From Eubacteriales bacterium (GTDB lineage: Bacteria; Bacillota; Clostridia; Oscillospirales; CAG-272), in contig JAZOML010000003.1 in the NCBI GenBank assembly GCA_045653945.1, positions 7,270-71,269 of the forward strand: a stretch of DNA of 64,000 nucleotides. Reading direction: 5' to 3'. The position numbers and the translations under genes were made by a program. This document shows positions 8,429 to 64,000 of the stretch, piece by piece. The notes under the pieces are model-generated. The model searched no databases. It saw nothing but the letters and a program-made list of their open reading frames with translations, and was not told the DNA's origin. Position 1 is the first letter of the stretch. Each line of letters starts with the position of its first letter.

Positions 8429-8467
8429 AGAAGTTCTTTTGCTTTCTTTTCTTTCAAGAAAAGAAAG
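8429..8467 (+). repeat. hairpin-core repeat abutting the start codon
   Basis: Tail aagaagttcttttg plus hairpin ctttcttttctt-tc-aagaaaagaaag (8442-8467). Confidence 0.75.
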
Positions 8468-9699
8468 TGGTAAAAATACTAAATTTTGGTTCGTGTAATA
8501 TAGACTTGGTATATACACTTGATCATATCGCGGTTTCGGGTGAAACGGAAAGCACACTCTCTCTTCGTACCTACCCGGGCGGAAAGGGACTGAACCAATC
8601 CGTTGCGGCGGCAAAGGCTGGCGCAAAAATATACCACGCAGGTCTTGTCGGTCAAGACGGACAGGAGCTGCTTGATATTATGCAAAAAAACGGTGTTGAC
8701 ACAACCTTTGTCAAAACCGTAAACGAAAAAAGCGGACACGCAATAATTCAGGTAACCCCCGAGGGTGAAAACAGTATCATCACCTACTCGGGCGCAAACA
8801 GAAATTTCACTCAAAATTACATAGACGGGGTGCTTGAAAGCTTCGGAAAAAACGATATTTTGCTCCTGCAAAACGAAATCAACCTCGTTCCTTATATTGT
8901 AGATAAAGCACACGCAAAGGGTATGAGAATAGTCCTCAATCCCTCACCCGCAGACGATGATTTGAAAAAAATTGACTTCGGTAAGCTTACCTACCTTATT
9001 TTAAACGAGTTTGAGGCAAAGGGGCTTACAGGCACCTCGGACGCCGATGCAAGCATTATGTACCTTAGCAGACTCTACCCGAATTTAAAAATTATGCTCA
9101 CGCTCGGTTCAAAGGGCTGTGTTTACGCCGACGGAAGCGAGCGAATCTTCCACCCCGCATTTAAGGTTGACGTCATTGACAAAACGGCGGCAGGCACAAC
9201 CTTTGCAGGATATTTTATAGCCGCCATTTCCAAGGGCGAGACGGTTTACGATGCAATTCGCTTTGCTTCGGGAGCGGCAGCGCTGTCCGTTTCAAGAAAG
9301 GGCGCAGCCCCATCTATTCCAAGCGAAAGCGAGGTGCTTGACGCACTTAAATTTCTCCGCCCTACCAAAACGGATAGCGAGTCGGAAAACCAAGTTAAAC
9401 AAATTATCGGATATCTCGAAACTCATATCACCGATGCAAGACTTGACGAACTTGCATCACTTCTCGGATACTCCTCGGTCTACACAAGCGGACTCATCAA
9501 AAAGCTTATTGGCAAAACCTTCTCCGCGCTTTTGCAGGAAAAACGCTGTCATATCGCCATCAAGCTGCTTCGTGAAACCGATATGCCTATCGAGGAAATA
9601 ATCTTTGCGGTAGGCTACGAAAACGAAAGCTTTTTCCGCCGTATTTTCAGAGAAACCTACGGCATAAGCCCACTAAAATACCGTAAGAAAAACAGATAA
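8467..9699 (+). CDS. PfkB-family sugar kinase (ribokinase-like) fused to a C-terminal AraC-type HTH domain
   Basis: Kinase part VKILNFGSCNIDLVY...GGKGLNQSVAAAKAG...DKTAAGTTFAG. C-terminal part LLGYSSVYTSGLIKKLIGKTFSALLQEKR...IIFAVGYENESFFRRIFRETYGISPLKYR. The track start at 8344 reads through a repeat, so GTG at 8467 is chosen. Confidence 0.7.
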   Translation: MVKILNFGSCNIDLVYTLDHIAVSGETESTLSLRTYPGGKGLNQSVAAAKAGAKIYHAGLVGQDGQELLDIMQKNGVDTTFVKTVNEKSGHAIIQVTPEGENSIITYSGANRNFTQNYIDGVLESFGKNDILLLQNEINLVPYIVDKAHAKGMRIVLNPSPADDDLKKIDFGKLTYLILNEFEAKGLTGTSDADASIMYLSRLYPNLKIMLTLGSKGCVYADGSERIFHPAFKVDVIDKTAAGTTFAGYFIAAISKGETVYDAIRFASGAAALSVSRKGAAPSIPSESEVLDALKFLRPTKTDSESENQVKQIIGYLETHITDARLDELASLLGYSSVYTSGLIKKLIGKTFSALLQEKRCHIAIKLLRETDMPIEEIIFAVGYENESFFRRIFRETYGISPLKYRKKNR

Positions 9700-9702
9700 T
9701 TT

Positions 9703-9733
9703 AAAAACCGAGGCTTTAAAGCCTCGGTTTTTT
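9703..9733 (+). terminator. rho-independent terminator
   Basis: aaaaaccgaggc-ttta-aagcctcggtttttt, identical to the hairpin at 10155-10186. Confidence 0.7.
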
Positions 9734-9906
9734 ATTCTTTTTCATAAAGACCTGCCACAGCAAACTGCATCCCCTTGCGAAATCCGTCAATTTTACACAC
9801 CTCTATCTCAAACACACACTTGACATCTAGTAAATGTCATTATTCATATTATAACATAATATAATTAAAAATGTCAAGCACTAAATGTCAAAGAGAGGCT
9901 ACGTGT

Positions 9907-10149
9907 ATGTTTAAAAATAAGGCGAACGGCAAAAATAATATTTGCGGTGAAAATATAAAAGAAATAAGACTTAATCAAGCTCCCAAAATGTCGCAAAGAG
10001 CTCTTGCGGATAAGCTCCAACTACTCGGCGTTGACGTTGATAAAAACGCAATTCAACGTATCGAAAGCGGTCAGAGATTTGTAACCGATATTGAAATTAA
10101 AGCGATAGCAAAAATTTTCGGCACAACCGTTGACCAGCTGTTAATCTAA
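9907..10149 (+). CDS. small XRE-family HTH protein
   Basis: IKEIRLNQAPKMSQRALADKLQLLGVDVDKNAIQRIESGQRFVTDIEIKAIAKIFGTTVDQLL. ATG at 9907 follows AGAGAGG; the track start is 9871. Confidence 0.75.
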   Translation: MFKNKANGKNNICGENIKEIRLNQAPKMSQRALADKLQLLGVDVDKNAIQRIESGQRFVTDIEIKAIAKIFGTTVDQLLI

Positions 10150-10154
10150 TATAT

Positions 10155-10186
10155 AAAAACCGAGGCTTTAAAGCCTCGGTTTTTTT
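10155..10186 (+). terminator. rho-independent terminator (duplicate of 9703-9733)
   Basis: Same 31-nt sequence, aaaaaccgaggctttaaagcctcggtttttt. Confidence 0.7.
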
Positions 10187-10250
10187 GTTATACCAGCTCT
10201 TTAAAAATCATTTGAGCCAACACGACAAATTTCTTTTGTATATAATAGTC

Positions 10251-11512: not shown

Positions 11513-12883
11513 TCACTCAACAACCGGCAGCTTTGCAAGTGCCTGATTGATTTCGTCATCGGTGGGAACGTAGTCGGTCATCTTGCCGTCGTGGAACTTT
11601 TCATAAGAAAACATATCAAAATATCCCGTTCCGGTAAGACCGAATACGATAGTTTTGCTTTCGCCCGTTTCGATGCACTTCTTTGCCTCGTCTATTGCGA
11701 CCTTGATTGCGTGAGAGCTTTCGGGAGCAGGGAGTATTCCCTCAATTCTTGCAAAGTATTCCGCCGCCGCAAATACCTCGGTCTGGCTTACCGAAACTGC
11801 TTCCATAAGTCCGTCATCGTAAAGCTGGGAAAGGGTACTGCTCATACCGTGATAACGGAGTCCGCCCGCGTGAGAAGCGGCAGGAATAAAGCCGCTACCG
11901 AGCGTATACATCTTCTGAAGCGGACAAATCATACCCGTATCGCAGTAGTCGTATGCGTATTTTCCTCTTGTGAAGCTGGGGCAGGACTTTGGCTCAACCG
12001 CGATAAATCTGTAATCACGCTCGCCTCTTATCTTCTCACCCATAAAAGGAGCGATAAGTCCGCCGAGGTTAGAGCCGCCACCCGCACAGCCGATGATTAT
12101 ATCAGCCTTTTCGCCGTATTTATCAAGTGCAGTTTTGGTTTCAAGACCGATAACCGACTGGTGGAGCATAACCTGATTCATAACGCTACCAAGCACGTAG
12201 CGATACCCTGCGGTTGTGGTTGCCTTTTCAACCGCCTCGGAAATTGCACAGCCAAGACTTCCCGTTGTGCCGGGGTGCTCGGCGAGTATCTTCTGACCGA
12301 CCTTGGTTTCCATTGATGGCGAGGGTGTTACACTTGCACCGTAGGTACGCATAACCTCACGTCTGAACGGCTTTTGCTCATAAGAGCATTTAACCATATA
12401 TACCTTACAGTCTAGGTCAAAGTAGGAACAAGCCATAGAAAGAGCCGTACCCCACTGACCTGCTCCTGTTTCGGTGGTAACTCCCTTGAGTCCCTGCTGC
12501 TTTGCGTAGTAAGCCTGAGCAATAGCGGAATTGAGCTTATGCGAGCCGCTCGTGTTATTGCCCTCGAACTTATAGTAAATCTTTGCAGGTGTGCCGAGCT
12601 TCTTTTCAAGGCAGTACGCTCTTATAAGGGGAGCAGGGCGGTACATTTTATAAAAGTCGCGTATCTCCTCGGGGATTTCAAAGTATGCAGTGGTATCGTC
12701 AAGCTCCTGCTTTATAAGCTCCTCGCAAAAAACACCGTCAAGGTCCTTTGCCGTCATAGGCTTATGCGTTTCGGGGTCAAGGAGCGGTGCGGGCTTATTT
12801 TTCATATCTGCACGCAGGTTATACCAAGCCTTTGGCATCTCGCTTTCTTCAAGGTAAATTTTGTAAGGTATCTTCTTTTCCAT
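11513..12883 (-). CDS. trpB: tryptophan synthase beta-chain-like PLP enzyme (TrpB2 type), stand-alone
   Basis: 456 aa. Long TrpB2-type N-terminus, FEGNNTSGSHKLNSA (PLP lysine), GGGSNLGG. No trpA nearby. Preceded by a Trp T-box. Confidence 0.85.
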   Translation of the reverse strand: MEKKIPYKIYLEESEMPKAWYNLRADMKNKPAPLLDPETHKPMTAKDLDGVFCEELIKQELDDTTAYFEIPEEIRDFYKMYRPAPLIRAYCLEKKLGTPAKIYYKFEGNNTSGSHKLNSAIAQAYYAKQQGLKGVTTETGAGQWGTALSMACSYFDLDCKVYMVKCSYEQKPFRREVMRTYGASVTPSPSMETKVGQKILAEHPGTTGSLGCAISEAVEKATTTAGYRYVLGSVMNQVMLHQSVIGLETKTALDKYGEKADIIIGCAGGGSNLGGLIAPFMGEKIRGERDYRFIAVEPKSCPSFTRGKYAYDYCDTGMICPLQKMYTLGSGFIPAASHAGGLRYHGMSSTLSQLYDDGLMEAVSVSQTEVFAAAEYFARIEGILPAPESSHAIKVAIDEAKKCIETGESKTIVFGLTGTGYFDMFSYEKFHDGKMTDYVPTDDEINQALAKLPVVE

Positions 12884-12995
12884 TTTTTCACGCTTTCTGA
12901 AGAAAGCTTAGCAAAGACTTCTCTTGCCACGCTTCCTTCTTATTTTGGTTTAAATTTTTACTTTTATTATTTGTGTATGATTTCGTCGACGAAAT
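12884..12995 (+). repeat. hairpin-core mosaic repeat between the T-box terminator and the trpB start
   Basis: gctttctgaagaaagc (12892-12907), then ttagcaaagacttctcttgccacgc, then tttaaattttta. Also a solo palindrome atttcgtcgacgaaat (12980-12995), which equals the closing stem of the structured repeat domain. Confidence 0.8.
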
Positions 12996-13046: not shown

Positions 13047-13320
13047 GAAAATATAAGTCCCGAGCACCGTAAACGGTACTCGGGACGAAATTACTATTTC
13101 CGTGTTGCCACCCGATTTTAACAGCCGAAGCCGTCCTCTTTGCGTACCTTCATACGCCGCGCTACGATAACGGTGCGCTCTCCGTCAGGGAATACTGCAA
13201 TTTTCTGCCCCACCCTCGAAAGTCCATTTACGCCCTCTCCCCTTGCCGCGCTTCCACCAAGCGCGCGTGCTCTCTGTAAGGTTTTAGAGTACGCTACTAC
13301 TCTTTCTCATCGGTTTACAT
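13047..13320 (-). promoter_or_regulatory. T-box riboswitch leader, tryptophan specifier (UGG)
   Basis: On the minus strand the elements are:
- GA/AGUA motifs CCGATGAGAAAGAGTAGTA.
- AG bulge AGAGAG and distal loop GGTGGAA.
- Specifier TGG-A (13223-13226) directly 5' of CTTTC, which pairs with GAAAG.
- T-box GGGTGGCAACACG (13101-13117).
- Terminator hairpin 13057-13086 plus a U tract. Confidence 0.85.
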
Positions 13321-14723: not shown

Positions 14724-14744
14724 AAATTCCTCACAAAAGATTTT

Positions 14745-14790
14745 GTAGCTTTCTTGAAAGAAAGCTACGCAAAGAACTTCTTTTCCACCC
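14745..14790 (+). repeat. hairpin-core repeat
   Basis: gtagctttcttgaaagaaagctac (14745-14768) plus gcaaagaacttcttttccaccc. Confidence 0.8.
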
Positions 14791-14929: not shown

Positions 14930-15038
14930 TGATTTTTCAATCTTCCTGCAAGAAAATCAGAATACTTCTCTCGCAAACGGGGGAAGTAATACCTCGTTTG
15001 TGAGAGAAGTTCTTTGGTTCTTTCTTTCAAGAAAGAAC
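14930..15038 (+). repeat. hairpin-core mosaic repeat
   Basis: Inverted repeat cttctctcgcaaacg / cgtttgtgagagaag, tail gttctttg, core hairpin gttctttctttcaagaaagaac (15017-15038). Confidence 0.8.
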
Positions 15039-15053
15039 GAAAAAAACACAGTA

Positions 15054-16805: not shown

Positions 16806-17076
16806 ATAAAACAAGCCCTCTGCAATTTCTTGCAGAGGGCGTAGTATACGCGGTTCCACCTCTTTTTCACTCTACTCTTACAAGTAAAGCCTCACCAAGC
16901 GCTCCCAAAAAATCGGGGTTACGCTTTGACCTCATAACGGTAGTCAGCCGTCGCCACTTTTCATAGCGCCGCTCAGCAAATGTATTCACCAAATTTCCCC
17001 GCACTGTCTTGCACCCACCGACAGCTCTCTGCAACGGCAAAAAACGGCTACTTTTTTTGCGTCCCTGCGTTTTTAC
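16806..17076 (-). promoter_or_regulatory. T-box riboswitch leader (amino-acid identity unresolved)
   Basis: On the minus strand the elements are:
- AGTA box, AGAGAG bulge and distal loop GGTGCAA.
- Candidate specifier TAC-A directly 5' of TTTGC, which pairs with GCAAA.
- T-box AGGTGGAACCGCG.
- Terminator gccctctgcaa-gaaa-ttgcagagggc (16815-16840) plus a U tract. Confidence 0.8.
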
Positions 17077-22275: not shown

Positions 22276-22356
22276 ATTAAGCTCCTTTTTTTGTTTTTTC
22301 GCTTTCTTGAAAGAAAGCTTGCAAAGAACTTTTGTACTGTTTTATTATGTGTAGAT

Positions 22357-22480
22357 ATTCCGTCGCCGTTTTACTGTGTAAAACGCTCTCGTTCTACTTC
22401 GTTTAAAAGGCTCACGCGAACAAGTTCCCATCGCCTTTTTTAGCTCGTATCACTGCCACGCACACGTGGTCGACGAAATT
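22357..22480 (-). repeat. structured repeat domain, subtype alpha (copy S1, 5' of hprK)
   Basis: Sense strand reads aatttcgtcgacc-[ccacg tgtg cgtgg]-cagtgat-[aaaaggc..gaac tt gttc..gcctttt]-aaacgaagtag-[cgtttta cacag taaaacg]-gcgacggaat. Confidence 0.8.
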
Positions 22481-22560
22481 GTTTAAACTTTGTACATTAG
22501 TTCAAATTGTGCGGAAGTTCCGACTTTAGCGGAGTGTAGTGCGATGCTCTATGCTCGAGC

Positions 22561-22672
22561 ATTTCGGCAGTAACGAAGTTACGCTATGTTGAGGGAAAAA
22601 GCGGAGAAAGCTTGCTTTTGAGAGCCTTTTCCCGAAACATAATCGACCTACTTTAAAAAGTAGGGACGAAAT
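22561..22672 (+). repeat. structured repeat domain, subtype beta (copy S2)
   Basis: atttcggc-[gtaac gaa gttac]-..-[aaagc tt gcttt]-..-[cctactt taaa aagtagg]-gacgaaat. Confidence 0.8.
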
Positions 22673-22771
22673 GCCCACACAAATAAAATGCCATAAAAGC
22701 TTTTGCGAGCTTTTCTCGAAAAGCGAAAAGAAAAAATAAACAACAAAATTTACTCAAAAAGTTTGGTTAGC

Positions 22772-23953
22772 TCACTCATACATAGACATAAACTGAACGT
22801 CCATTTTTGCAAACGCCTCGTCTTCCAGTGCAGAAAGGTCTGCCTTTTCCTCCTCGGCTATGACCTTGCTAAGCTCGGGGCGGGTTTTCGGGTGTCTTGG
22901 AGTGAACACCGTACAGCAGTCCTCGTAGGGCAAAATTGAGGTATCAAAGGTATTGATTTTTCTTGCAACCTCAATAATTTCCTCTTTATCAAGTCCGATA
23001 CAAGGTCTGAAAACAAGCATATCCGCCGCAGGGTCGGTTACTCCCATTGCAAGCATCGTTTGGGACGCCACCTGACCAAGGCTCTCGCCCGTAATCAGTG
23101 CGCCGCACCCTCTTGACTTCGCCACTCTTGCCGCAAGTCGCATCATAACTCGGCGCAGCAAAAGTGTGAAATATTCCTCTTGTACGGTATCTCGCAGGCG
23201 CTCCTGAATTTCGGTTACCGAGATGCAGTTTACCCTTACAGTACCGCAGTATGCGCTCATAAGTCTTGCAAGCTCAAGCACCTTTTCCTTTGCGGCGTCC
23301 GATGTGTACGGGAAGCTTTCAAAATGCACCGCCTCGATTTTTGCGCCTCGCTTTGCCATCATATAACCCGCAACGGGGCTATCAATTCCACCCGAAAGAA
23401 GAAGCATTGCTCTGCCTGCCGTTCCAATAGGCATACCGCCTGCGCCCTTAACCGCATCGGCGTGTACGTATGCGTGATTTTCACGCACCTCAACCGTTAC
23501 GGTAGCCTCAGGGTTATCCATTGATACACGAATTCTACCACTCGTAGCCTCAAGCACTGCGCCACCTACCTGAGCCGCAATTTCGGGAGATTTAAGCGGA
23601 AAGCGCTTGTCCGCCCTCTTTGCGTTAGCTCTGAACGTTTTCTTGCCTGCAAGCAGCGGCGGAACGTATTCCTTTACCGTTTTAAGTATAGCGTCCATAT
23701 TCTTTTCCGTTTCAGCTGCCCTGCAAACGGTTGAAAGTCCGAAAATTTTGAGCAGTGCCTCAAAAACTGAGTCGCTATCCTCGATTTCCTCAACAGGCTC
23801 AACGTAAATAGTTGACTGCGCACGCTTTACCTCAAATTTGCCAAACGGCGCTATGCGGTATTTTATTTCCTTGATGAGAGCGCTCTCAAACTGACCTTTA
23901 TTAAGTCCCTTGAGCGCAAGCTCACCGTATTTACACAAAAATATTTCTTTCAT
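22772..23953 (-). CDS. thiI: tRNA 4-thiouridine synthase ThiI
   Basis: 393 aa. THUMP region plus PP-loop LLLSGGIDSPVAGYMMAKRG. Confidence 0.92.
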   Translation of the reverse strand: MKEIFLCKYGELALKGLNKGQFESALIKEIKYRIAPFGKFEVKRAQSTIYVEPVEEIEDSDSVFEALLKIFGLSTVCRAAETEKNMDAILKTVKEYVPPLLAGKKTFRANAKRADKRFPLKSPEIAAQVGGAVLEATSGRIRVSMDNPEATVTVEVRENHAYVHADAVKGAGGMPIGTAGRAMLLLSGGIDSPVAGYMMAKRGAKIEAVHFESFPYTSDAAKEKVLELARLMSAYCGTVRVNCISVTEIQERLRDTVQEEYFTLLLRRVMMRLAARVAKSRGCGALITGESLGQVASQTMLAMGVTDPAADMLVFRPCIGLDKEEIIEVARKINTFDTSILPYEDCCTVFTPRHPKTRPELSKVIAEEEKADLSALEDEAFAKMDVQFMSMYE

Positions 23954-23989
23954 TTGCGATTTTCCCTTGATTTATATTAATTTAAAATT

Positions 23990-24018
23990 ATTTTATCATA
24001 TAAAAAATGAGTTGTCAA
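23990..24018 (-). promoter_or_regulatory. sigmaA promoter for thiI
   Basis: Minus strand TTGACA (24013-24018) - 17 nt - TAAAAT (23990-23995). Confidence 0.55.
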
Positions 24019-24059
24019 GCACCACAGGGGTATGCGGAAGTTTTGGGTGTTGGTTTTTA

Positions 24060-24265
24060 TTTCCACATTTCTTGAAAGAAACCGTACTTTTCTTGAAAGA
24101 AAAGTAGGCAAAAGAACTTCTATTACCACGCCACCATGTTGTGTGGTGGAAATTTTACACCAAATCAATTATATGCCCGTCGGTGCTTACCGACTCTTGA
24201 AAGAAAAGTAGGCAAAAGAACTTCTCTTACTACGCCGCAGTGTTTTGTAGTGGAAATTTTAGGCG
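24060..24265 (+). repeat. two tandem hairpin-core mosaic repeats
   Basis: tacttttcttgaaagaaaagta (24085-24106), then ggcaaaagaacttctattaccacgccacc...aaattttacaccaaatcaattatatgc. A second truncated copy follows: ctcttgaaagaaaagtaggcaaaagaacttctcttactacgcc... Confidence 0.85.
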
Positions 24266-24320
24266 TTAACTTTCTCGGCTTTTCGCCCGTTTTTTGAAAA
24301 AATGTAGCAAACTGACAACC

Positions 24321-26198
24321 TTATCTATTGTTAAGTTTAAGCCAAATAAGGAGTACTGAAATATCAGCAGGCGATACGCCACTGATACGACTTGCCTGAC
24401 CTATATTTAAGGGGCGGACCTTGTTTAATTTTTGTCTTGCCTCGATGCGAAGTCCGATTATTTTATCGTAGTCGATATCGGCGGGCAGGAGTCGTGTTTC
24501 CAGCTTTTCAAGGCGGTGTGCGTCCTCGATTTGTCTTGCGATATAGCCGTCGTATTTGAGCTGAATTTCAGCCTCGGCTTTGACTGTTGGGTGTAAAAAG
24601 AGGTAGGTATCGTCTATCTCTCTCAGCGCCTCGTAGCTCAGCTGTGGGCGGCGTAAAAGCTCGGACAGGCGTATTCCCGTTGTTACGGGGGTGGTGCCAT
24701 TAGCGACCAAAATTTCGTTCAGTTTCTCACTTGGCGGAACGCTTTTTGCTTTTACTCGCGCGATTTCATTATCTATTTGTGTTTTCAGGCTTACAAGCTC
24801 TGCGTACCGTTCCTCGGACAGGAGTCCCGAGCGTTTGCCCTCGTCCATAAGTCGAAAGGCGGCGTTACTTTGTCGGAGCAGGAGTCGGTATTCGGAGCGT
24901 GAGGTCATAATTCTATACGGCTCGTTTGTGCCTTTTGTAACGATATCGTCGATAAGTGTGCCGATATACGAAGAATTACGGGTAAGCACGAGAGGGCTTT
25001 CACCCTTGATTTTATATGCGGCGTTAATTCCTGCGACAAGTCCCTGTGCCGCCGCCTCCTCGTAGCCTGACGTACCGTTGAACTGACCTGCACCGTAAAG
25101 TCCCGATACGCTTTTGAATTCAAGTGTGGGGAGCAGCTGAGAGGGGTCTATGCAATCGTATTCAATAGCATAAGCAAAACGCATTACCTCGGCGTGTTCA
25201 AAGCCCTCAATTGAGTGCAGCATTTCAAGCTGAACCTCAGCGGGCAAAGAAGAAGAAAAGCCTTGTAGGTAAATTTCGTCGGTATCGTAACCCATCGGCT
25301 CGGCAAATAGCTGGTGTCTTGGCTTATCAGAAAAGCGCACGACCTTATCTTCGATGCTTGGGCAGTATCGGGGGCCCGTACCTTCAATTTTGCCACTGTA
25401 AAGTGGTGAGCGGTGAAGATTTGAACGTATAATTTCGTGAGTTTTTTCGTTAGTATATGCAATATAGCAGGGGATATGGTTTTCTGCGCTCATATCCTTT
25501 GTTGCGTGAGAAAACGGAACAGGCTCGTTTTCGCCGTCCTGTCTTTCGAGCTTTGAAAAGTCGATGGAGCGGCGGTGAATTCTCGGCGGTGTGCCGGTTT
25601 TGAAGCGAAGCAGCTTGACGCCAAGCTCTGCAAGGCACTCATTAAGTCCAACTGCGGGCAGGGAGTTATCGGGGCCTGCCTCGTAGGCGGTGTCGCCGAT
25701 GATAATTTTACCGCGCAGGTATGTACCCGAGCAAATAATAGCGGCCTTGACCTCGTATCTGATACCAAGTCGGTTGGTAACGGCGCAAACGGCTCCGTCT
25801 TTGACCTCAAGCGAGGTGATTTCGCCTTGAATTACACGAAGGTTTTCGGTAGCCTCAAGCGTTTGCTTCATTATGGAGTGGTATGCCATACGGTCTGCCT
25901 GCACTCTTTTGGAGTGGACGGCAGGGCCTTTACCGAGGTTAAGGGTGCGGCTTTGCATTGTAACCTTATCAGCGGCTTTGCCCATTTCTCCGCCGAGGGC
26001 GTCTATCTCGTAAACGAGGTGTCCTTTACCTGTGCCGCCTATTGACGGGTTACACGGCATATTTGCAATTTGGTCGAGGCTTAGGGTGAACAGTATGGTG
26101 TCAAGTCCCATTCTTGCGCCCGCAAGCGCCGCTTCGACGCCGGCGTGTCCTGCTCCTATTACCGCTATATCCGCTTTTGTTTCATTAAATGTGTTCAT
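24321..26198 (-). CDS. mnmG: tRNA uridine-5-carboxymethylaminomethyl modification enzyme MnmG (GidA)
   Basis: 625 aa. [22 protein letters not shown] motif and full-length GidA pattern. Confidence 0.97.
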
Positions 26199-26229
26199 TT
26201 ATTTGTCCTTTAACAGTTACTTTGTGCCG

Positions 26230-26297
26230 AGGGGTTTTATCTTCTTTCTTGAAAGAAAGAAGCAAAGAACTTTTGTATAATTTTATGCGGTGTAAGG
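26230..26297 (-). repeat. tail plus core hairpin of the mosaic repeat, 5' of mnmG
   Basis: cttctttcttgaaagaaagaag (26241-26262) plus caaagaacttttgtataattttatgcggtgtaaggg. Confidence 0.8.
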
Positions 26298-26413
26298 GTT
26301 TCGTCGCGTTTGGCTTGCCAAACAAAACGTTCTGTGTTGATAAAAGACTCGTGTGAGCAAGCTCTCGCCGTCTTTTTATCTACACATCACTGCAACTGCG
26401 TTGCCGACGAAAC
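26298..26413 (-). repeat. structured repeat domain, subtype alpha (copy S3, 5' of mnmG)
   Basis: Sense strand reads gtttcgtcg-[gcaac gca gttgc]-agtgat-[aaaagac..gagc tt gctc..gtctttt]-[gtttggc aa gccaaac]-gcgacgaaac. Confidence 0.8.
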
Positions 26414-26446
26414 TGTTCAAGTGAAGTGCAATTAATTAGAGATTAT

Positions 26447-26872
26447 TCAATGGTGGTAGTGTCCTCCGCCGAGGATATTGAGTGCACGATAGGTTTGTTC
26501 AAGCAAAATTACACGCATCAGTTGGTGTGGAAAGGTCATTTTTGAAAACGAGAGTCGGTAATCGCACATAGCTTTTACGCTTTCGGGGAGTCCGTCCGCA
26601 CCGCCTATAACGAGGGTTATATTTCCTTGTCCATGCACCGTCGCCTTATCAAAAAGTGCCGCAAGTTCCTCGCTTGAAATTTGCTTTCCCTCGACGCACA
26701 GTGCGATTTTATAGCTTTTGCCCTCAACGGCTGATTGGAGCTGTGCGTCGTTTTTTAGCTCTACGGTGGTGAGCTTACAGTATGCCTGCAAACGCTTTTC
26801 GTATTCCTTTACGGCATCGCGTAAAAATTGCTCACGCAAAGTACCTACACAAACTATTTTTATGTTAAGCAT
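26447..26872 (-). CDS. rlmH: 23S rRNA (pseudouridine1915-N3)-methyltransferase RlmH
   Basis: MLNIKIVCVGTLREQFLRDAVKEYEKRL...LVIGGADGL...LSFSKMTFPHQLMRVILLEQTYRA. 141 aa from ATG at 26872. The track extension to 27043 reads into repeats. Confidence 0.9.
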   Translation of the reverse strand: MLNIKIVCVGTLREQFLRDAVKEYEKRLQAYCKLTTVELKNDAQLQSAVEGKSYKIALCVEGKQISSEELAALFDKATVHGQGNITLVIGGADGLPESVKAMCDYRLSFSKMTFPHQLMRVILLEQTYRALNILGGGHYHH

Positions 26873-26907
26873 ATACGTAATCCTTTTCAAAAGTTGTTGT
26901 CCAATGT

Positions 26908-27022
26908 GTTTCGTCAGTAACGAAGTTACACTGCGAAGTAGCGAAAAGGCGGAGAAAGCTTGCTTTTGAGAGCCTTTTTGCTGACTCGCAGAATATCCGC
27001 TTGTAAAAAGCGGGGACGAAAC
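26908..27022 (+). repeat. structured repeat domain, subtype beta (copy S4)
   Basis: gtttcgtc-[gtaac gaa gttac]-[ctgcga..[aaaaggc..aaagc tt gcttt..gcctttt]..tcgcag]-[ccgctt gtaaa aagcgg]-gacgaaac. Confidence 0.8.
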
Positions 27023-27039
27023 ATCTGCACCGTGCGGGA

Positions 27040-27170
27040 GCACTATACAGAAGTCTTTGCTAAGCTTTCTTCAGAAAGCGAAAAAAACAACAAAGGCTCA
27101 AAACTTACATAAAACACCACGGTGGCGTGGCTACAAAAGTTTTTGCCGAGGCTTTTTTCAAAAAGCCGGA
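27040..27170 (+). repeat. repeat tails with two core hairpins
   Basis: cagaagtctttgc-ta-a-gctttcttcagaaagc (hairpin 27064-27079), then caccacggtggcgtggctacaaaagtttttgc-cgaggcttttttcaaaaagccgg (27146-27168). Confidence 0.8.
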
Positions 27171-27179
27171 AAAACCAAC

Positions 27180-27959
27180 CTAAGAAAGCAGCGAAATGCA
27201 GTCCTCTCTTGGTGCGGCGGCGAGGAAATCAAGATGCGCATCGGTGCGACGCATTTCCATTGAAACCTCGTGAACGGCAAGGTCGGGGGTGTTGTTTTCG
27301 GGGCTGATGTGAGCAAGAAGAACTCGTTTCACCCCTGTTTTAGCGAGGCGTGAAACGAATTTTGCGCAATCGACGTTTGAGGTATGTCCGCTATCGCCCA
27401 TTATGCGATATTTGAGCACCTGACTGTACGGCCCACAGATGAGCATAGCCTCGTCGTAGTTTGCCTCGGTTATGACGTTTTCGCAGTCCTTGAAGAATTC
27501 AAAAAGCTCATCGGTTGGCTTTCCTGCATCGGTGCAGATACCAAGCGAAACTCCACCTGAAATTCGGTAAGCAACACAAGCGGCGCTGTCGTGTCGGACA
27601 GGCATAGCCTCAACCGTTAAGTCGCCCACGTCTATACAAAAATCGGTATCCGTTACCGTAAAATCGTTTTTGTTATCAAAGCCCTTCCCTCTTATGTAGC
27701 TGATATATGAGGGCTGAGTTATGTAGACGGGTATATTATAGCTTTTCATAAAGGTCGGCAGCCCCGCAACGTGGTCGCTGTGCTCGTGAGTAAGGAAAAC
27801 AGCGGACACGTCGGCAAGATTTACACCAAAATCCGCAAGAGCGTTCTTGACTCTTTTGCAGGACAAACCGAAGTCTATAAGAATGTGAGTTGCGCCCGAG
27901 CTTACAAGCGTACAGTTAGCCTTTGAGCCTGAGGCGAGTGATATAATTTGCTTTTGCAT
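27180..27959 (-). CDS. MBL-fold metallo-hydrolase (YycJ/WalJ-like)
   Basis: LIDFG...FLTHEHSDHVAG metallo-beta-lactamase motif. Sits next to rlmH as yycJ does in Bacillus. Confidence 0.85.
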   Translation of the reverse strand: MQKQIISLASGSKANCTLVSSGATHILIDFGLSCKRVKNALADFGVNLADVSAVFLTHEHSDHVAGLPTFMKSYNIPVYITQPSYISYIRGKGFDNKNDFTVTDTDFCIDVGDLTVEAMPVRHDSAACVAYRISGGVSLGICTDAGKPTDELFEFFKDCENVITEANYDEAMLICGPYSQVLKYRIMGDSGHTSNVDCAKFVSRLAKTGVKRVLLAHISPENNTPDLAVHEVSMEMRRTDAHLDFLAAAPREDCISLLS

Positions 27960-27979
27960 TTTGTTACCTTTTGGTTTTA

Positions 27980-28021
27980 AATAAAGATAAGCCCGAAACG
28001 CCTTTGTTCAGCGTTTCGGGC
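27980..28021 (-). terminator. rho-independent terminator after galK
   Basis: gcccgaaacgc-ctttgttca-gcgtttcgggc, with a T tract on the minus strand. Confidence 0.6.
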
Positions 28022-28034
28022 GTTGTGTGTTAAA

Positions 28035-29318
28035 TTACTTAACCTTTATCGCACCCTCGGCACGAATATTGAGGGTAGCACAAGCGCCTTGACCAAATGC
28101 GGCATCAAGAGTCGCTCTGAACTCGTCCTTAAGCGCTACGGGAACAAATGCCTGAACAGTTCCTGCAAATCCGCCGCCGTGAACACGCCAAGCTCCGCCC
28201 TTGCCGCCGAGCACGTGCTTGCAAAGTGCAAGAGCAACGGAAAGCCCCTGCTCGCCTACGTTCTTTACGGTGTATACGTTTTGAAGCTGCTTGAAGCTTG
28301 AATCGCCCGATGCGAGAACGCCCTCAAGGAAGCCGTTAAGGTCGCCTGCCATAAGACAAGCCTTTTGAAGAGCAACACGCTCGTTTTCCTCAATGAAGTG
28401 GAGCGCACGCATAAGGTGGCGATCTCCGAGCTTTTCACGGATTTCGGGGAGCTTCCCGAGTATATCGTCATAGGTAAGTCCACGCAAAACCTCACGTCCG
28501 AACATAGCCGCAACAGCCTTCATTTCGGCAGGAACAGATGCGTAGTCATCGTTTAAGTCAGCGTGGTTACCGCCGGTGTTTACAATGCACAGGCAGTAGC
28601 CCTGAGCTGCGAGGTCAAACTCAAGCTTTTCAATAATGGGCTTGGTGGGGTCAGCAAAATCTATTGCGACAAATCCACCGACTGCACAGGCGGTCTGGTC
28701 CATAAGTCCGCAGGGCTTACCGAAGAATACGTTTTCGGCGTACTGCGAAATCTTTGCAAGTTCAGGTGAGTCGATTTTACCTTCGTTATAGAAGTGGTTG
28801 ATTACGTTACAAATTTGTACTTCAAATGCGGCAGACGAGGAAATTCCCGAGCCCTTGAGAACGTCGCTTGTGGTGTAAGCCTTAAAGCCGCCGTAAGCAA
28901 AGCCACGCTTTGCAAAGCCGTCGCAAATACCCGCTATAATAGCGGCTGAGCCGTAGTTTTCGTAGTTATCGGGGTTAAGGTCGGATATATCGACCTCGTC
29001 CTTATCAAAGCCCTTGCTTTTGACCTCAATCCTCATTTCAGCAGTCTTTGCTGCAACCGCGATAATGTCAAGGTCGAGTGCCGCCGCAAGAACGCAGCCG
29101 CGATTGTGGTCGGTGTGGTTGCCCGAAACCTCGGTTCTGCCGGGAACGGAGAAAAGAGTTACGTCATCATCACCGTAGATGCCGATAAACTCGTTTATGG
29201 CGTCGGTGTATCTTGTTTTTTGAGCGCAAACACGCTCCGCACCGTAAAGATGCGCAAGAGTAGAATCAAGAGCGCCGTTTTCTATGTCTTTAATCAAAAG
29301 TGATGCTTTCATTTGCAA
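28035..29318 (-). CDS. galK: galactokinase-family GHMP sugar kinase
   Basis: 427 aa. PGRTEVSGNHTDHNRGCVLAAA, GSGISSSAAFEV (GHMP motif), GGGFAGTVQAFV. Confidence 0.75.
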   Translation of the reverse strand: MQMKASLLIKDIENGALDSTLAHLYGAERVCAQKTRYTDAINEFIGIYGDDDVTLFSVPGRTEVSGNHTDHNRGCVLAAALDLDIIAVAAKTAEMRIEVKSKGFDKDEVDISDLNPDNYENYGSAAIIAGICDGFAKRGFAYGGFKAYTTSDVLKGSGISSSAAFEVQICNVINHFYNEGKIDSPELAKISQYAENVFFGKPCGLMDQTACAVGGFVAIDFADPTKPIIEKLEFDLAAQGYCLCIVNTGGNHADLNDDYASVPAEMKAVAAMFGREVLRGLTYDDILGKLPEIREKLGDRHLMRALHFIEENERVALQKACLMAGDLNGFLEGVLASGDSSFKQLQNVYTVKNVGEQGLSVALALCKHVLGGKGGAWRVHGGGFAGTVQAFVPVALKDEFRATLDAAFGQGACATLNIRAEGAIKVK

Positions 29319-29466
29319 AGTATCCTCTCTTTTAAATATATTTTTTTATAGTATATCATAAAAATATTATAATTTCAAGGGGAATAGTAAAATTTCGCTT
29401 TACAAAAGAACATTTTAATGTTATAATTAAGATGCAAAAATTTAAAAAGACAAACGGAGAACAAAA

Positions 29467-29832
29467 ATGTCAGATTTTTATATAATTTATGATAAACTTT
29501 TCAAATATGAGGGTAAGGGCGGCGACGTTTTTATTCCCAGCGGTCTGAAGACGGTAGGCATATACGCCTTTGTAAATAACGATAAGCTTGAAAGCGTGGT
29601 CATACCCGACACAGTAACCGAAATCGAGCTTTGCGCCTTTGAAGCGTGTGAAAATTTGTGGGACGTCGAGATGTGGTCTAGCGTAAAGGTTATAGGCTCA
29701 GGGGCATTTCGAGGCTGCCGCCGCCTTGAACAAATAAGGTTTCACGGAACTCCCGAAGAGTGGGATGCAATAAAAAAAGACTGGGGCTGGAATACCGATA
29801 TCTGTCCCGATTGCAAAATAAGATTTTTCTAA
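29467..29832 (+). CDS. single-module BspA-type LRR protein (121 aa), no signal peptide
   Basis: YEGKGGDVFIPSGLKTVGIYAFVNNDKLESVVIPDTVTEIELCAFEACENL...IGSGAFRGCRRLEQIRFHGTPEEWDAIKKDWGW. Same cap as the 39.6-48.2 kb LRR genes. Confidence 0.75.
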   Translation: MSDFYIIYDKLFKYEGKGGDVFIPSGLKTVGIYAFVNNDKLESVVIPDTVTEIELCAFEACENLWDVEMWSSVKVIGSGAFRGCRRLEQIRFHGTPEEWDAIKKDWGWNTDICPDCKIRFF

Positions 29833-29878
29833 GAGTTTATTCAACCGTACATATCCTTCAAAAAGGCGAAAAACGAAA

Positions 29879-30211
29879 ATGAACATAATTGGACGAAAAA
29901 TTCATATTATAATCGAGCGCCCGCTCGGTAGCACCCACCCAAAACACAAAAATATCAAATATGAGGTAAATTACGGCTACACGCCCGACTTTATGGGCGG
30001 CGACGGCGAGGAGCAGGACGTTTACCTGCTCGGATATGATGCACCGATAAACGAAACCTACGCAACCGTAATTGCGGTGATCCACCGCCTTGACGATAAC
30101 GAGGATAAATGGGTAGCGGCGCCAAGCGGCACAACCTTCACCGCCGATGAAATTATGCAGACGGTCAATTTTCAGGAAAAATTCTTTAAATCAGAACTAA
30201 TAATGAGTTAA
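29879..30211 (+). CDS. truncated family-I inorganic-pyrophosphatase-like protein (110 aa)
   Basis: IIERPLGSTHPKHKNIKYEVNYGYTPDFMGGDGEEQDVYLLG...VIHRLDDNEDKWVAAP matches the PPase core pattern E.P.GS..KYE...NYG.IP....DG...DV.....R..D....D.K.V..P. Confidence 0.65.
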   Translation: MNIIGRKIHIIIERPLGSTHPKHKNIKYEVNYGYTPDFMGGDGEEQDVYLLGYDAPINETYATVIAVIHRLDDNEDKWVAAPSGTTFTADEIMQTVNFQEKFFKSELIMS

Positions 30212-39302: not shown

Positions 39303-39438
39303 CCGTACTTTTCTTGTAAGAAAAGTACGGTTAGCACCAGCAAGCGAATAATTGATATAGTGTAAATTTAAACTGTATATCACGGCGGCGTAGTAAGAGA
39401 AGTTCTTTTGCCTACTTTTCTTACAAGAAAAGTACGGT
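39303..39438 (+). repeat. full-length mosaic repeat flanked by two core hairpins
   Basis: ccgtacttttcttgtaagaaaagtacgg, then gcgaataattgatatagtgtaaatttaaactgtatatcacggcggcgtagtaagagaagttcttttgc, then ctacttttcttacaagaaaagtacgg. Confidence 0.85.
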
Positions 39439-39453
39439 GGAATATAAAACCGA

Positions 39454-39514: not shown

Positions 39515-39614
39515 AATAAATAATAAATATCAAAATGTGTAATATATGTTTAAATTCACCGAGTTTAAGATAGAATTCGGATTTAGGTATTACACTTAAA
39601 AAGGAGTAAGCTTT

Positions 39615-40667
39615 ATGTCAACGCCCACACCGTATAGCGGTAGCGAGCCTTTTATATTTCTGAGCTTTTCGGAAAAGGACAGCACTGCCGTATTGCGATT
39701 AATCTCAAAAATGCAAGTCGACGGCTACCGCATCTGGTACGATGACGGCACAAGCCTCGAAGAGAATTATTCTAAAACCGTTGCAGACAAAATAAGCAGC
39801 TGCGAGTTTTTCATCGCAATCTTTACTTCAAGCTTTATTTCCACAGATGCCTGCATTTCTCAGCTTGATATGGCACAGAAGGAAAGAAAAAGCGGCACCG
39901 CAATATTCTTAGAGGAGCTCACCCTCTCGCTGGGTATGAGATTTCGTCTTTTGCAGTTCGACGGCTTTCATAAGTACGCATATACAAACGAAAACGACTT
40001 TTGGGACGAGCTATACGAAAGCGATAATTTCGGATTGTTTAATTTATCCGATGCGCCCAAAAGACCTACCCCCGAAACCTCAAGTCCCAACAAAGATTTT
40101 TTAATAGAGAACGGAGTGCTTTCGGCTTATTCGGGCGATGACGAATACGTCGTCATACCGGAGGGCGTACATAAAATAGACCGTATGGCTTTTGCGTTCA
40201 ACAATAGCATAAAGACCGTCTTTGTACCAAGCTCAATAACGTTTATTGACGAAATGGCGTTTTATCAATGCACAAGCCTTGTTGAGGTTTTCCTGCCCGA
40301 CACTATAAACCATATCGGCGAAAAAGCCTTTGCGGGCTGCACGTCCTTTGCTCGTTTTTTCGCTCCCGAGAAAGTTAAAAAAATACTGCCCGGCACTTTT
40401 TGGGGCTGCACCGCGCTTGTAAGGGTAATTATTAGCAACAGTGTTACAGAGATAGGCGCCCAAGCATTCAAGCTTTGCGAAAATCTTAACGAGGTAGTTA
40501 TCGGTAGCGGACTCACAAGTCTTGCCGCCGACGCCTTTGACGACTGCAAACGTCCGCTTACCATACGTTACAAGGGTACGCGGGAAGCGTGGTATAAAAT
40601 CATAGAAGCTCTCGGCTGGAAAAAGGGCGAGGGAAAATATATAGTTCACTATAACCAAAAGGGCTAA
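39615..40667 (+). CDS. TIR-domain / BspA-type LRR protein (TIR catalytic Glu replaced by Gln)
   Basis: N-terminus PYSGSEPFIFLSFSEKD...GYRIWYDDG...FFIAIFTSSFISTDACISQLDMA (Q83, codon 39861-39863). About six LRRs of the form IPxxVxxIxxxAFxxCxxL follow. Cap YKGTREAWYKIIEALGWKKGEGKYIVHY. RBS AAGGAG. No signal peptide. Confidence 0.8.
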   Translation: MSTPTPYSGSEPFIFLSFSEKDSTAVLRLISKMQVDGYRIWYDDGTSLEENYSKTVADKISSCEFFIAIFTSSFISTDACISQLDMAQKERKSGTAIFLEELTLSLGMRFRLLQFDGFHKYAYTNENDFWDELYESDNFGLFNLSDAPKRPTPETSSPNKDFLIENGVLSAYSGDDEYVVIPEGVHKIDRMAFAFNNSIKTVFVPSSITFIDEMAFYQCTSLVEVFLPDTINHIGEKAFAGCTSFARFFAPEKVKKILPGTFWGCTALVRVIISNSVTEIGAQAFKLCENLNEVVIGSGLTSLAADAFDDCKRPLTIRYKGTREAWYKIIEALGWKKGEGKYIVHYNQKG

Positions 40668-40672
40668 AAATT

Positions 40673-41581
40673 ATGGACAAGATGAATGATTTTGTAATAG
40701 AAGACGGAATGCTGACCGAATACATAGGAGATGGCGGGCGTGTCATTATACCCGACGGTGTCAGAAGTATAGGCGACGAGGCGTTTGCCGCTTGCGAGCC
40801 TATTACGGAAATTTTAATACCAAACACCGTTGTTTCAATAGGAAATAAGGCGTTTGAGGGCTGCGAGGGTATTACCAAAATAACTCTGCCCGACAATCTT
40901 AAATTTATCGGCAAATTTGCATTTGTCGGATGCACCTCTCTTGAAGAAATTAACATTTCGGAAAGCAACTCCGCCTATAAATCGCTTTTCGGAGTGCTCT
41001 ATTCAAAGGACGGAAGAACACTTATTTGCCACCCCGCAGCAAAAAAGGGCGGAACGTTCTTTGTGCCCCATAACGTACAGCGCATAGACCTCGGCGCATT
41101 TTGGAAATGCAAAAGCCTTGAATGTATTATGCTACCGTTCGGCTTAAAGGAAATTTGCTATGGCGCATTTAACGAGTGCGTATCGCTTTCCGTTATTTCA
41201 ATACCAAGCACCGTAACGACGCTTGGCGGACTTGCCTTCGGCTCCTGCAAGGCGCTGACCTCGATAACCCTGCCAAAGAGCATAGTTGAAATATCAAACT
41301 TCACCTTTTCGTACTGTACCGGACTTAAAAGCTTCAAGGTACATAACGGAATAAAGAAAATCGGCAACTATGCGTTTTTTAACTGCAAAAATCTTACCGA
41401 GATATATATTGGCAGCTCCGTCAATTCACTAGGCGAAAGCGCACTTTCCTATTGCAACAGTCCGCTTACCGTAAAATACGCAGGCTCAAAGCCGACCTTT
41501 TATAAGCTCATTGAAAAGCAGGGCTGGAAAAAGGGCGAGGGTAAATACATAGTATATTACAACCAGGAAGAGCCTACATAA
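40673..41581 (+). CDS. BspA-type LRR protein, no signal peptide
   Basis: MDKMNDFVIEDGMLTEYIGDGGRVIIPDGVRSIGDEAFAAC... About nine repeats. Cap YAGSKPTFYKLIEKQGWKKGEGKYIVYY. Starts 5 nt after the upstream stop. Confidence 0.8.
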   Translation: MDKMNDFVIEDGMLTEYIGDGGRVIIPDGVRSIGDEAFAACEPITEILIPNTVVSIGNKAFEGCEGITKITLPDNLKFIGKFAFVGCTSLEEINISESNSAYKSLFGVLYSKDGRTLICHPAAKKGGTFFVPHNVQRIDLGAFWKCKSLECIMLPFGLKEICYGAFNECVSLSVISIPSTVTTLGGLAFGSCKALTSITLPKSIVEISNFTFSYCTGLKSFKVHNGIKKIGNYAFFNCKNLTEIYIGSSVNSLGESALSYCNSPLTVKYAGSKPTFYKLIEKQGWKKGEGKYIVYYNQEEPT

Positions 41582-41601
41582 AAGAAAGCGAAATACCGAA
41601 A

Positions 41602-42396: not shown

Positions 42397-42479
42397 ATAA
42401 AAGGAGCGTTTCGTGTATTTTACACACCTTATACGGATAAGAGTCATCCGCACAACCGCAACTAAAAAGTGAGATAAAA

Positions 42480-44102: not shown

Positions 44103-44115
44103 AGGAGATTTGAAT

Positions 44116-45963: not shown

Positions 45964-45966
45964 AAA

Positions 45967-46476: not shown

Positions 46477-46495
46477 CTTCAAAGGAGAATATACG

Positions 46496-48199: not shown

Positions 48200-48218
48200 C
48201 TTCAAAGGAGAAAAGGCT

Positions 48219-51165: not shown

Positions 51166-51175
51166 TTTTCCCCCC

Positions 51176-56023: not shown

Positions 56024-56183
56024 AGTCGTACTCCCTCCGTTTCTAATTTCGTCCGTTAACGCAACCATAATCGGCTACATCAACGCATAAGTTTGCATCG
56101 TAATCAACATTATATACTATTTTATAACTATTTGTCAACCCATTTCAAAATTTTTACAAATTCTTAACAAGTATCCCCCCCCC

Positions 56184-60558: not shown

Positions 60559-60564
60559 TTTTTA

Positions 60565-61013: not shown

Positions 61014-61431
61014 GGCTTTCTTGTAAGAAAGCCTCGCCAAAAGTCGGGGCCGCCCGACAGCGGTAACGGCTACGCCCAAGAAGTTCTAATCGTATTAACA
61101 CTCATACTGCTGTGTGTTCACACAGTAAGTTAGAGTTTGCATAAAGTTTAAACAATTTCGTCGACCGCGTGTGCGCGGCGGTGATACAAGTGAAAAAAGG
61201 CGTTGGGAGCCAAGGCTCACAAAAGCCATTTAAACGAAGTAGCACAAGGCGTTTTGTAAAGCAAAACGGCGACGAAATCCCTACACCAAACCAAATGCCA
61301 CAAAAGTTTTTGCCGAGGCTTTTTTCAAAAAGCCGGAAAAAAAGCCGAAAAAAAATAAAAAGTAAAAAATTTAAATTAAATACGAAGTAAGCGGGGCAAG
61401 AGAAGTCTTTGCTAAGCTTTCTTCAGAAAGC
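61014..61431 (+). repeat. 420-bp non-coding block of mosaic repeats 5' of gyrB
   Basis: Core hairpins ggctttcttgtaagaaagcc (61014-61033), ccgaggcttttttcaaaaagccgg (61313-61336) and gctttcttcagaaagc (61416-61431). Structured domain S5 lies in between. The block ends gtggaaaaATG. Confidence 0.85.
61155..61278 (+). repeat. structured repeat domain, subtype alpha (copy S5, 5' of gyrB)
   Basis: atttcgtcgacc-[ccgcg tgtg cgcgg]-cggtgat-[..gagcc aa ggctc..]-aaacgaagtagc-[cgttttg taaag caaaacg]-gcgacgaaat. Confidence 0.8.
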
Positions 61432-63767: not shown

Positions 63768-63849
63768 CTCAAAATTTGCAGTGGACAACCTGTTGATTTA
63801 GTGTGTATATTAAAAATTACACAAAGCGAAAGACACCTCATCAGCCACA

Positions 63850-64000
63850 TAGTGGCAGCAATACGTCAATGGAAAAACGGGAAGAACTTGTTCTTCAGAG
63901 TTTTTTCCTGACGGAGAGCGTGTCCGCTTTTAAAAAGCGGTGATGAGATGTCGGATAAAATGCGCCGGGCGGGAGCCTTATACAAAAGCTTTTGCCGATG
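63850..64000 (+). repeat. degenerate copy of the structured repeat plus tail (truncated by window end)
   Basis: tccgcttttaaaaagcgg hairpin, then ...ccttatacaaaagcttttgc tail, as in copies S2 and S4. Confidence 0.55.

Follow-up and report, generated by a model that had tools for sequence, protein, structure and literature searches.

Six full copies of a structured repeat, here called S, lie in a 64-kb stretch of contig JAZOML010000003.1 from a Eubacteriales bacterium (the whole stretch is referred to as the window). S measures 115-125 nt and is probably a lineage-specific, non-coding and non-autonomous structured intergenic repeat, one of several palindromic modules by which the spacers of its lineage have been invaded and the most elaborate among them. 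Such a repeat fits the combination of properties that we found, namely that S is multi-copy and intergenic, is absent in relatives, occurs as an insertion or deletion (indel) at one site, has been replaced by another subtype at a second site and reduced by internal deletion at a third, and is nearly identical between two species at a single locus. Over short evolutionary times, copies have been lost, exchanged between subtypes and internally deleted. The first-pass annotation of this DNA had offered a mobile structured element and a shared leader RNA as alternatives. The former is borne out by the absence of S in relatives, the indel at galK, a replacement between strains, the subtype swap at gyrB and the lack of any Rfam match, while S as a new class of functional RNA is not supported.

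The five copies described in the first-pass annotation are all present at the positions and on the strands that it had given: S1 (22357..22480, minus strand), S2 (22561..22672, plus), S3 (26298..26413, minus), S4 (26908..27022, plus) and S5 (61155..61278, plus). An nhmmer profile of these five copies recovered a sixth full copy that had been overlooked, S6 (63835..63949, plus strand; about 63836-63950 in nhmmer), which has the closing stem CTCATCA/TGATGAG and scores 110.7 bits with a covariance model. S1 lies between thiI and hprK in sense orientation to hprK, S3 between rlmH and mnmG in sense to mnmG, and S5 upstream of gyrB, again in sense, whereas S2 is antisense to both thiI and hprK and S4, between a metallo-beta-lactamase-fold (MBL) gene and rlmH, is antisense to both of its neighbours. 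These orientations agree with the earlier description and refer to genes confirmed by Pfam (hprK, thiI, mnmG, rlmH, the MBL gene, galK, recF and gyrB). S6 follows a predicted promoter (63782-63811) at a distance of 24 nt and lies between a cluster of DnaA boxes and the next gene, which is gyrA in relatives. All copies in the window are intergenic, about 112-125 nt long and of 40-55% G+C, and 64 kb hold six copies and a relic. For the closing-stem pattern, 14 occurrences were counted in the window versus 1.9 expected.

Two covariance models were used, R1, built from a seed of eight beta-like copies and a hand-drawn structure, and a second model, R2. Their E-values are rough because of a short calibration, and the gaps in bit score are large. 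Without filters, R2 returns six full copies in the window and no more. S1, which was not in the seed of R1, scores 66.8 bits with R1 and 92.6 bits with R2, S5 50.6 and 78.3 bits, and S2, S3 and S4 score 97.7, 108 and 108 bits. R1 recovered four alpha copies from outside its seed at 51-75 bits, and a further copy obtained afterwards, L219:356-472, reached 58 bits under R1 and 65 under R2. The division into alpha and beta copies made in the first-pass annotation, with S1 and S5 labelled alpha and S2 and S4 beta in our analysis, holds for subtypes; it does not hold for separate groups, since alpha and beta copies are collinear on the strands given above and therefore form one family with one polarity. 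This polarity is also apparent from the R2 scores in the window, which are 78-108 bits on the forward strand and far lower, 12-28 bits, on the reverse strand.

Every copy has the architecture that had been noted before, in which a closing stem encloses several hairpins. The helices form a four-way junction of the closing stem P1 (8-9 bp), the short 5' hairpin P2, the long central arm P3 with an A-tract/T-tract base and a CUUG-type loop, and the 3' hairpin P4. Individual copies fold with minimum free energies of -37 to -52 kcal/mol, corresponding to z-scores of -3.1 to -7.6 against dinucleotide shuffles, the lowest being that of S4 (z -7.6). The paired substitutions named in the first-pass annotation are present in the copies, and statistics on the structure were derived from a 12-copy model alignment, which is fitted to the structure and contains some near-identical orthologs as rows. 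In this alignment 91.4% of cells are in standard pairs, compared to 77.5% after column shuffling and about 44% with the partners slid; both sides have changed in 24 of 36 pairs, a count little affected by the near-identical orthologs, and the covariation score (0.474 versus 0.208) was attained by 0 of 500 shuffles. The closing stem itself exists in four versions, all of them paired: RTTTCGTC(G), ATCACGTC, CTCATCA and ATCTTGCGG. In four pairwise comparisons, paired columns diverged by 19% and unpaired columns by 38% (Fisher p = 1.3e-5), and between copies the unpaired junction and loop positions, which lack a conserved core, differ by 30-52% compared with 15-28% for the stems. The proposal that the structure is under selection is therefore upheld by its upkeep through compensatory change and by stems that diverge half as fast as unpaired positions. 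The 430 cells include ten G-U and seven A-C combinations; as G-U is not above A-C, the pairing gives no indication of which strand or molecule folds. Folded as DNA, S4 and S6 take the same shape on both strands (z -5 to -6), while the plus strand of S1, the third copy tested, reaches only z -1.2 and does not share the shape.

To place S in its lineage, we compared contigs of relatives found by searches with MnmG, GyrB and the TrpB-like protein, which led to an uncultured lineage of Clostridia known from metagenome-assembled gut genomes. Species A (the window, ERZ27297630) also includes a second locus, L221, with 97% nucleotide identity to the window in trpB. Species B (GCA_054272415.1, ERZ27236856) is represented by two strains (L122/L125 and L219/L124) with 97-99% nucleotide identity in coding sequence. 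Between species A and B, coding identity is 83-88% at the nucleotide level and 62-68% at third codon positions, and four further relatives (L119, L120, L121 and L123) are more distant. In total, the S set contains 14 copies from four genomes of the two species, several of which are near-identical orthologs.

Comparison of orthologous spacers, as proposed in the first-pass annotation, revealed presence/absence polymorphism between related genomes. S is missing from about 20 kb around mnmG in L119, L120 and L121 and from the junctions of the window in L123. In L119 the three spacers are minute: the thiI-hprK junction measures 12 nt in L119 and 496 nt in the window, the rlmH-mnmG junction 16 and 248 nt, and the MBL-rlmH junction 14 and 307 nt. 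In species B, S is present at thiI-hprK (two copies), rlmH-mnmG and gyrB, with an extra copy upstream of galK, and absent from the sites of S4 and S6; in L122 the MBL-rlmH junction holds no counterpart of S4. The galK copy (L122c) is a clean indel of about 200 nt consisting of a short 5' flank, S, tail and hairpin, and the site is empty in the window, L119, L120 and L123. Five genomes share a canonical galK promoter, TTGCAA-17-TGATATAAT; this copy directly precedes it and is therefore not part of the galK transcription unit. The gyrB site is occupied by an alpha copy in the window and by an S6-like copy in species B, the latter behind a promoter-like TATAAT of its own, and TACACCAAACCAAA directly follows the element in both. 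Within species B, the S1 half of the thiI-hprK spacer is almost identical between the strains, but the S copies that occupy the S2 position differ, one strain having about 65 nt more there. L123 contains one weak and diverged S-like four-way junction about 9 kb downstream of mnmG (L123:20880-21260; 25.6 bits with R1, 26.4 with R2; closing stem ACCTCA/TGAGGT), which is bracketed by a 37-nt direct repeat (32 nt aligned, 30/32 identical) within a tandem duplication of about 270 nt.

Internal deletion is documented by a relic at 12961..12995 (minus strand), upstream of a trpB-like gene controlled by a T-box. The bare closing stem that had been reported at 12980-12995 exists, reads ATTTCGTCGACGAAAT and is followed by CATACACAAATAATAAAAG; because the latter is the normal start of the sequence behind a copy, the relic represents an S copy that has lost its interior. 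A deletion between the CGAC repeats of the palindromic stem, ATTTCGT[CGAC]...[CGAC]GAAAT, could explain it. The relic is shared by the conspecific strain (L221:746-759) and absent at that site in species B and in L220. Two T-box leaders in this region score above the Rfam gathering threshold (13078-13319 and 16832-17074, both minus strand). The first controls the TrpB-like pyridoxal-phosphate enzyme encoded at 11513-12883, and the relic together with a hairpin module lies between its terminator and the start codon.

The loci shared by species A and B fall into two regimes of conservation. Ordinary spacers have 46-74% identity, and S3 is 71% identical to its ortholog (L122:8573-8690), a pair in which all helices are kept through one compensated pair each in P1, P2 and the inner P3 hairpin and three in P4. 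At the thiI-hprK junction, in contrast, S1 is 96% identical to its orthologs (L122:3324-3445 and L219:619-740), S2 95.5% to L122:3527-3640, with a different copy at the S2 position in strain L219, and the unique linker between the divergent S1 and S2 (22481..22560) 94%, the linker being partly duplicated in L219; the flanking hprK and thiI are 61-67% identical at third codon positions. Judged from the alignments, this spacer would either be under very strong constraint or have an ancestor much more recent than that of the surrounding genes. The differences between A and B are evenly spread over the spacer and identity falls sharply at the gene boundaries; the even spread favours recent shared ancestry. 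Concerted evolution was rejected as the source of the roughly 95% interspecies identity, because S1 and S5 within the genome are less alike than S1 and its orthologs. A motif GTACAAAG / GTACAAAAG flanks S1 on both sides (22333-22341 and 22489-22496). The equivalent positions of L122 in species B carry GCACAAAG / GCACAAAAG on either side, so that a direct repeat has changed in parallel.

In the collections searched beyond this lineage, S was not found. Rfam yields no match at the gathering threshold over the window and, even at E <= 10, none over 22280-27200 and only chance-level matches elsewhere, so that the element matches no known Rfam family, a point that the first-pass annotation had proposed to check. 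An H hairpin lies at the centre of a weak RAGATH-19 match (24041-24154, plus strand; 20.6 bits where the gathering threshold is 85.6; E = 6.6), which is probably due to chance. In 761 kb of unrelated genomes, all with a loose stem pattern, R1 has zero matches; the 118 genome loci with this loose pattern are all chance occurrences, being negative with nhmmer in 118/118 cases and with the covariance model in the 100 tested. Metagenomes contain no locus with the strict pattern, and the 93 loci with a looser pattern of the central arm are ordinary terminator-like hairpins scoring no more than 36 bits. Viral contigs, phage records and plasmid records hold no true S copy, and R1 gave no match over 11 viral loci.

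Each S copy is joined to a second unit. After every copy, at a distance of 1-3 nt, the sequence continues in the same order with (C/T)(T/C)ACAC, an A/C-rich stretch, (T)ACAAAAGYTYTTTGC, a T/A-rich hairpin termed H and an A-rich run. The tail of S1 (ATCTACAC..TACAAAAGTTCTTTGC) and its hairpin GCTTTCTT-TC-AAGAAAGC occupy 22301..22356 (minus strand) and are followed by an A-rich stretch, a ribosome-binding site and the hprK ATG at 22275, while the tail of S2 with the hairpin GCTTTTC-TC-GAAAAGC (22673..22724, plus strand) points into the 3' end of thiI. The corresponding units are located at 26242..26297 (minus strand) for S3, with the hairpin TTCTTTCTT-TC-AAGAAAGAA and 88% identity to species B over tail, hairpin and leader up to the mnmG ATG, at 27023..27079 (plus) for S4, with GCTTTCT-TC-AGAAAGC, and at 61279..61334 (plus) for S5, with GGCTTTTT-TC-AAAAAGCC; the tail of S6 (63950..64000, plus; ..TTATACAAAAGCTTTTGCC) runs off the end of the window. 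The module of tail core and hairpin is itself repeated, with about 22 copies in the window in both orientations relative to genes. It consists of the core A(A/G)AAGTYCTTT(T)GS, the hairpin CTTTCTT-N2-AAGAAAG or compensated variants of it, and an A-rich run, and is placed right before ribosome-binding sites and also just past stop codons. Examples on the plus strand are found at 8429-8475, 15005-15044, 39398-39440, 56338-56371 and 61401-61435, and on the minus strand at 12886-12922, 14736-14781, 24081-24121, 24185-24225, 51173-51206, 52902-52938, 56178-56214, 60559-60597 and 63375-63414. The cores are closely alike among copies and across species; the module also occurs in L120 and species B, and was absent from the spacers read in L119.

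As to how S could behave, its propagation or persistence would depend on the fold and not on the terminal sequence. S would most likely act as folded single-stranded or cruciform DNA that is read by a structure-specific enzyme or kept by hairpin-templated repair. The first-pass annotation had left selection on RNA and on DNA undivided. We lean towards DNA, as G-U is about as frequent as A-C, the fold is largely strand-symmetric, some copies are antisense and one lies outside a transcription unit. Copies would also be carried into 5' untranslated regions (UTRs), since most are sense and just upstream of genes and two come directly after predicted promoters; there, an incidental effect of junction and hairpin on the stability or processing of mRNA is conceivable.

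Several observations weigh against a non-autonomous repeat. The sample is small, and no transposase or other mobilising gene came to light; Pfam annotation of the fetched loci and of nine window proteins revealed no transposase domain. No copy showed a precise insertion or excision event from which its ends could be defined. Target-site duplications, for which the first-pass annotation had suggested looking in the spacers, did not emerge; flank repeats are not above shuffles in 9/10 copies, the exception being the diverged L123 copy. The galK indel has only a 4-nt AAAG microhomology and could therefore reflect loss by deletion, and the terminal inverted repeat is not conserved in sequence as it is in classical miniature inverted-repeat transposable elements (MITEs). 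The neutral divergence of S3 and its ortholog with intact helices suggests constraint in place and possibly a function at the level of the host, and at six of eight loci S lies in sense orientation, upstream of a gene and close to the promoter, which a role as RNA would explain too.

The last two points would equally be expected if S were a cis-acting leader RNA domain (protein-binding, stabilising or attenuating) upstream of hprK, mnmG, gyrB, gyrA and galK. The strong covariation, the conservation of the S1 half of the thiI-hprK spacer in 4/4 examined genomes that have S there, and the start of S6 and of the species-B gyrB copy 10-24 nt past predicted -10 boxes agree with this, and attenuation is conceivable because the central arm resembles a weak terminator of A-tract, stem and T-tract. 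We nevertheless regard a leader as unlikely, and the shared leader RNA of the first-pass annotation was not sustained. L119, L120 and L121 have no S in front of these genes, the downstream genes are unrelated and have no function in common, S2 and S4 are antisense, and L122c lies upstream of the conserved galK promoter and thus outside that mRNA. Furthermore, the unpaired junction positions are poorly conserved and have no conserved core, G-U is not enriched, the gyrB site tolerates a subtype swap, and no Rfam family matches even at the permissive threshold. Some copies (S1, S3) may, with low probability, have been domesticated as structural 5'-UTR modules. At the DNA level, pairing might be kept in selectively neutral palindromic sequence, without a role in mobility or as RNA, purely by hairpin-templated mutation or repair, and copies might be spread by ordinary recombination among the tail and hairpin modules. 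Stems that are almost wholly Watson-Crick, a loop that seems inverted in S5 (CAAG versus CTTG elsewhere), the many modules as possible anchors for recombination, and the inversion of the galK-mnmG block with its repeat-rich borders would suit such a neutral process. However, if templated correction acted alone, stems and loops should diverge equally per site, where stems in fact diverge half as fast, and it explains neither the single four-arm architecture across subtypes with little arm sequence in common nor the polarity of the family, so that we hold it to be very unlikely.

Another possibility, which we consider quite unlikely, is that S serves as substrate for a mobilisation or exchange system which recognises shape in place of sequence, the junction being a cassette moved or swapped between short flank motifs and passed between species. 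This would account for the covarying termini, the gyrB subtype swap, the replacement between strains at S2 and the 95% identity that the thiI-hprK spacer retains between species. A concrete form of such a system would be a site-specific, structure-specific recombinase acting on S as on an integron attC site, with AAAGTTTAAACA as the left and TACACC as the right flank. attC sites lie 3' of cassettes next to intI, are about 57-141 nt long and are recognised as folded single strands whose shape is conserved while their sequence varies and whose interior can be branched; S is alike in conserved shape and variable sequence, and its size range overlaps theirs. A closing stem that covaries instead of staying conserved, the replacement at gyrB with TACACCAAACCAAA retained behind the element in both species, the presence of AAAGTTTAAACA at the thiI-hprK junction of L120, where S is missing, and the relic, which keeps both flank motifs, are in line with it. 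At gyrB, the AAAGTTTAAACA-like motif abuts S in the window only, about 70 nt separating motif and S in species B, and the beta and S6-like copies have no left motif. Unlike attC, S has no R''/R' core sites (RYYYAAC/GTTRRRY) and no extrahelical or bulged bases, its closing stems (RTTTCGTC/GACGAAAY etc.) being fully paired. Neither an integrase nor a cassette array was seen in the window or the fetched loci, and the neighbours are housekeeping genes in conserved order and provide no cassette context. An attC-like element therefore has, in our estimate, a very small probability.

Further candidates were rejected individually. The spacings and hexamers of the tail and the 5' flank do not suit a sigma-70 promoter, and a promoter scan was negative there; a sigma-54 site in the tail core, read from the sequence, has the wrong GG-GC spacing. 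Intrinsic termination was rejected as the main function of S, as the central arm has a G-C base of only 3 bp and a run of 4-6 T, and only one antisense inner hairpin passes a terminator scan. Hammerhead, twister-sister and hairpin ribozymes as well as a tRNA-like fold were dismissed for want of conserved cores and of any Rfam signal. A riboswitch or other ribozyme was discarded in view of the missing Rfam match, the variable unpaired positions, the unrelated downstream genes and the absence from the same genes in relatives.

Among described repeats, the closest kind appears to be bcr1 (group A of the bcr repeats in the Bacillus cereus group), a transcribed repeat of about 155 bp whose branched fold is kept by compensatory changes (PMC3184786). 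Both are intergenic in Firmicutes, on a scale of 100-150 nt, without open reading frames, with a branched predicted fold and compensatory changes, and both are distributed in a non-conserved manner among related genomes; bcr1 is carried into transcripts (PMC3184786), as its position suggests for S. The likeness is one of kind. bcr1 has two independent stem-loops and 5-bp direct repeats at its ends, whereas the four-way junction of S is closed by a terminal stem that covaries. S has no detectable target duplication or direct repeats at its ends, and a separate tail and hairpin module invariably accompanies it. S resembles BIME/REP of enterobacteria and BOX of Streptococcus pneumoniae in that a few palindromic modules occur in varied orders and orientations at the 5' and 3' ends of genes; BIME/REP and BOX have known effects on mRNA stability and expression (PMC3184786). 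However, REP units are single G+C-rich hairpins of about 35 bp, with a conserved 5' tetranucleotide and a linked RAYT transposase, and BOX is a linear A-B(n)-C array, neither of which holds a 115-nt four-way junction. Features of REP, BIME or REPIN elements are lacking in S, with its 115-125 nt and four helices, and no RAYT was present in the sequence examined. Classical MITEs (Correia/nemis, RUP, ERIC) are like S small, non-coding, multi-copy and intergenic, with inverted termini and presence/absence polymorphism, and are co-transcribed with their neighbours, as S probably is. Their terminal repeats are the conserved, transposase-binding part and their flanks carry target duplications, while the ends of S exist in four compensated versions. 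The missing duplication and a terminal stem conserved in pairing and not in sequence set S apart from them.

Other repeats and rearrangements were seen in the same region. A second hairpin module adjoins H at 60597-60680 and 63414-63500 in the window, at L120:9100-9210 and 9850-9925, and at L122:7890-7975. It has a conserved base TTTTCTTAC.../...GTAAGAAAA(TTACTCCGTAA), an upper stem that is wholly variable yet paired, and a loop with TTTTAAAAT or AAATTTTACAC. Three tandem units of 65 nt, 82-100% alike and each ending in the small hairpin GCCAGCGGGTGCTACCCGC, occupy 51214-51408, with one dispersed copy at 24129-24193, and a near-perfect, bidirectional terminator-like palindrome, AAAAACCGAGGCTTTAAAGCCTCGGTTTTT, is present in two copies 422 nt apart (9696-9732 and 10155-10191). 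The gene array at about 39600-50300 has 69-nt periodic repeats and, as homologues in the fetched loci are annotated LRR_5, seems to encode BspA-like leucine-rich-repeat (LRR) proteins. The DnaA-box-like TTATCCACA/TGTGGATAA cluster between gyrB and the next gene (63560-63790), with S6 on its right edge, is conserved in species B and hence looks like an oriC region. The block LRR-galK-MBL-rlmH-mnmG (about 24320-29880) is inverted relative to L119, L120 and L122, and its left border (23954-24320) is dense in repeat modules; in L121 and L123 the genes from galK to mnmG have this relative orientation too, but thiI is not adjacent.

If S is such a repeat, it adds a well-defined family to the few bacterial intergenic repeats that preserve shape over sequence, unusually with the terminal stem included. 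It also carries a warning for annotation, since strong covariation in a multi-copy element is insufficient to call a regulatory RNA. Mobilisation by a system that reads shape would, if true, point to an enzyme that is not yet known. For the lineage itself, the comparison indicates that the tightly packed spacers of housekeeping genes can grow from about 12 to about 500 nt within one group of gut Clostridia, with possible effects on operon coupling (thiI-hprK, rlmH-mnmG) and on 5' UTRs.

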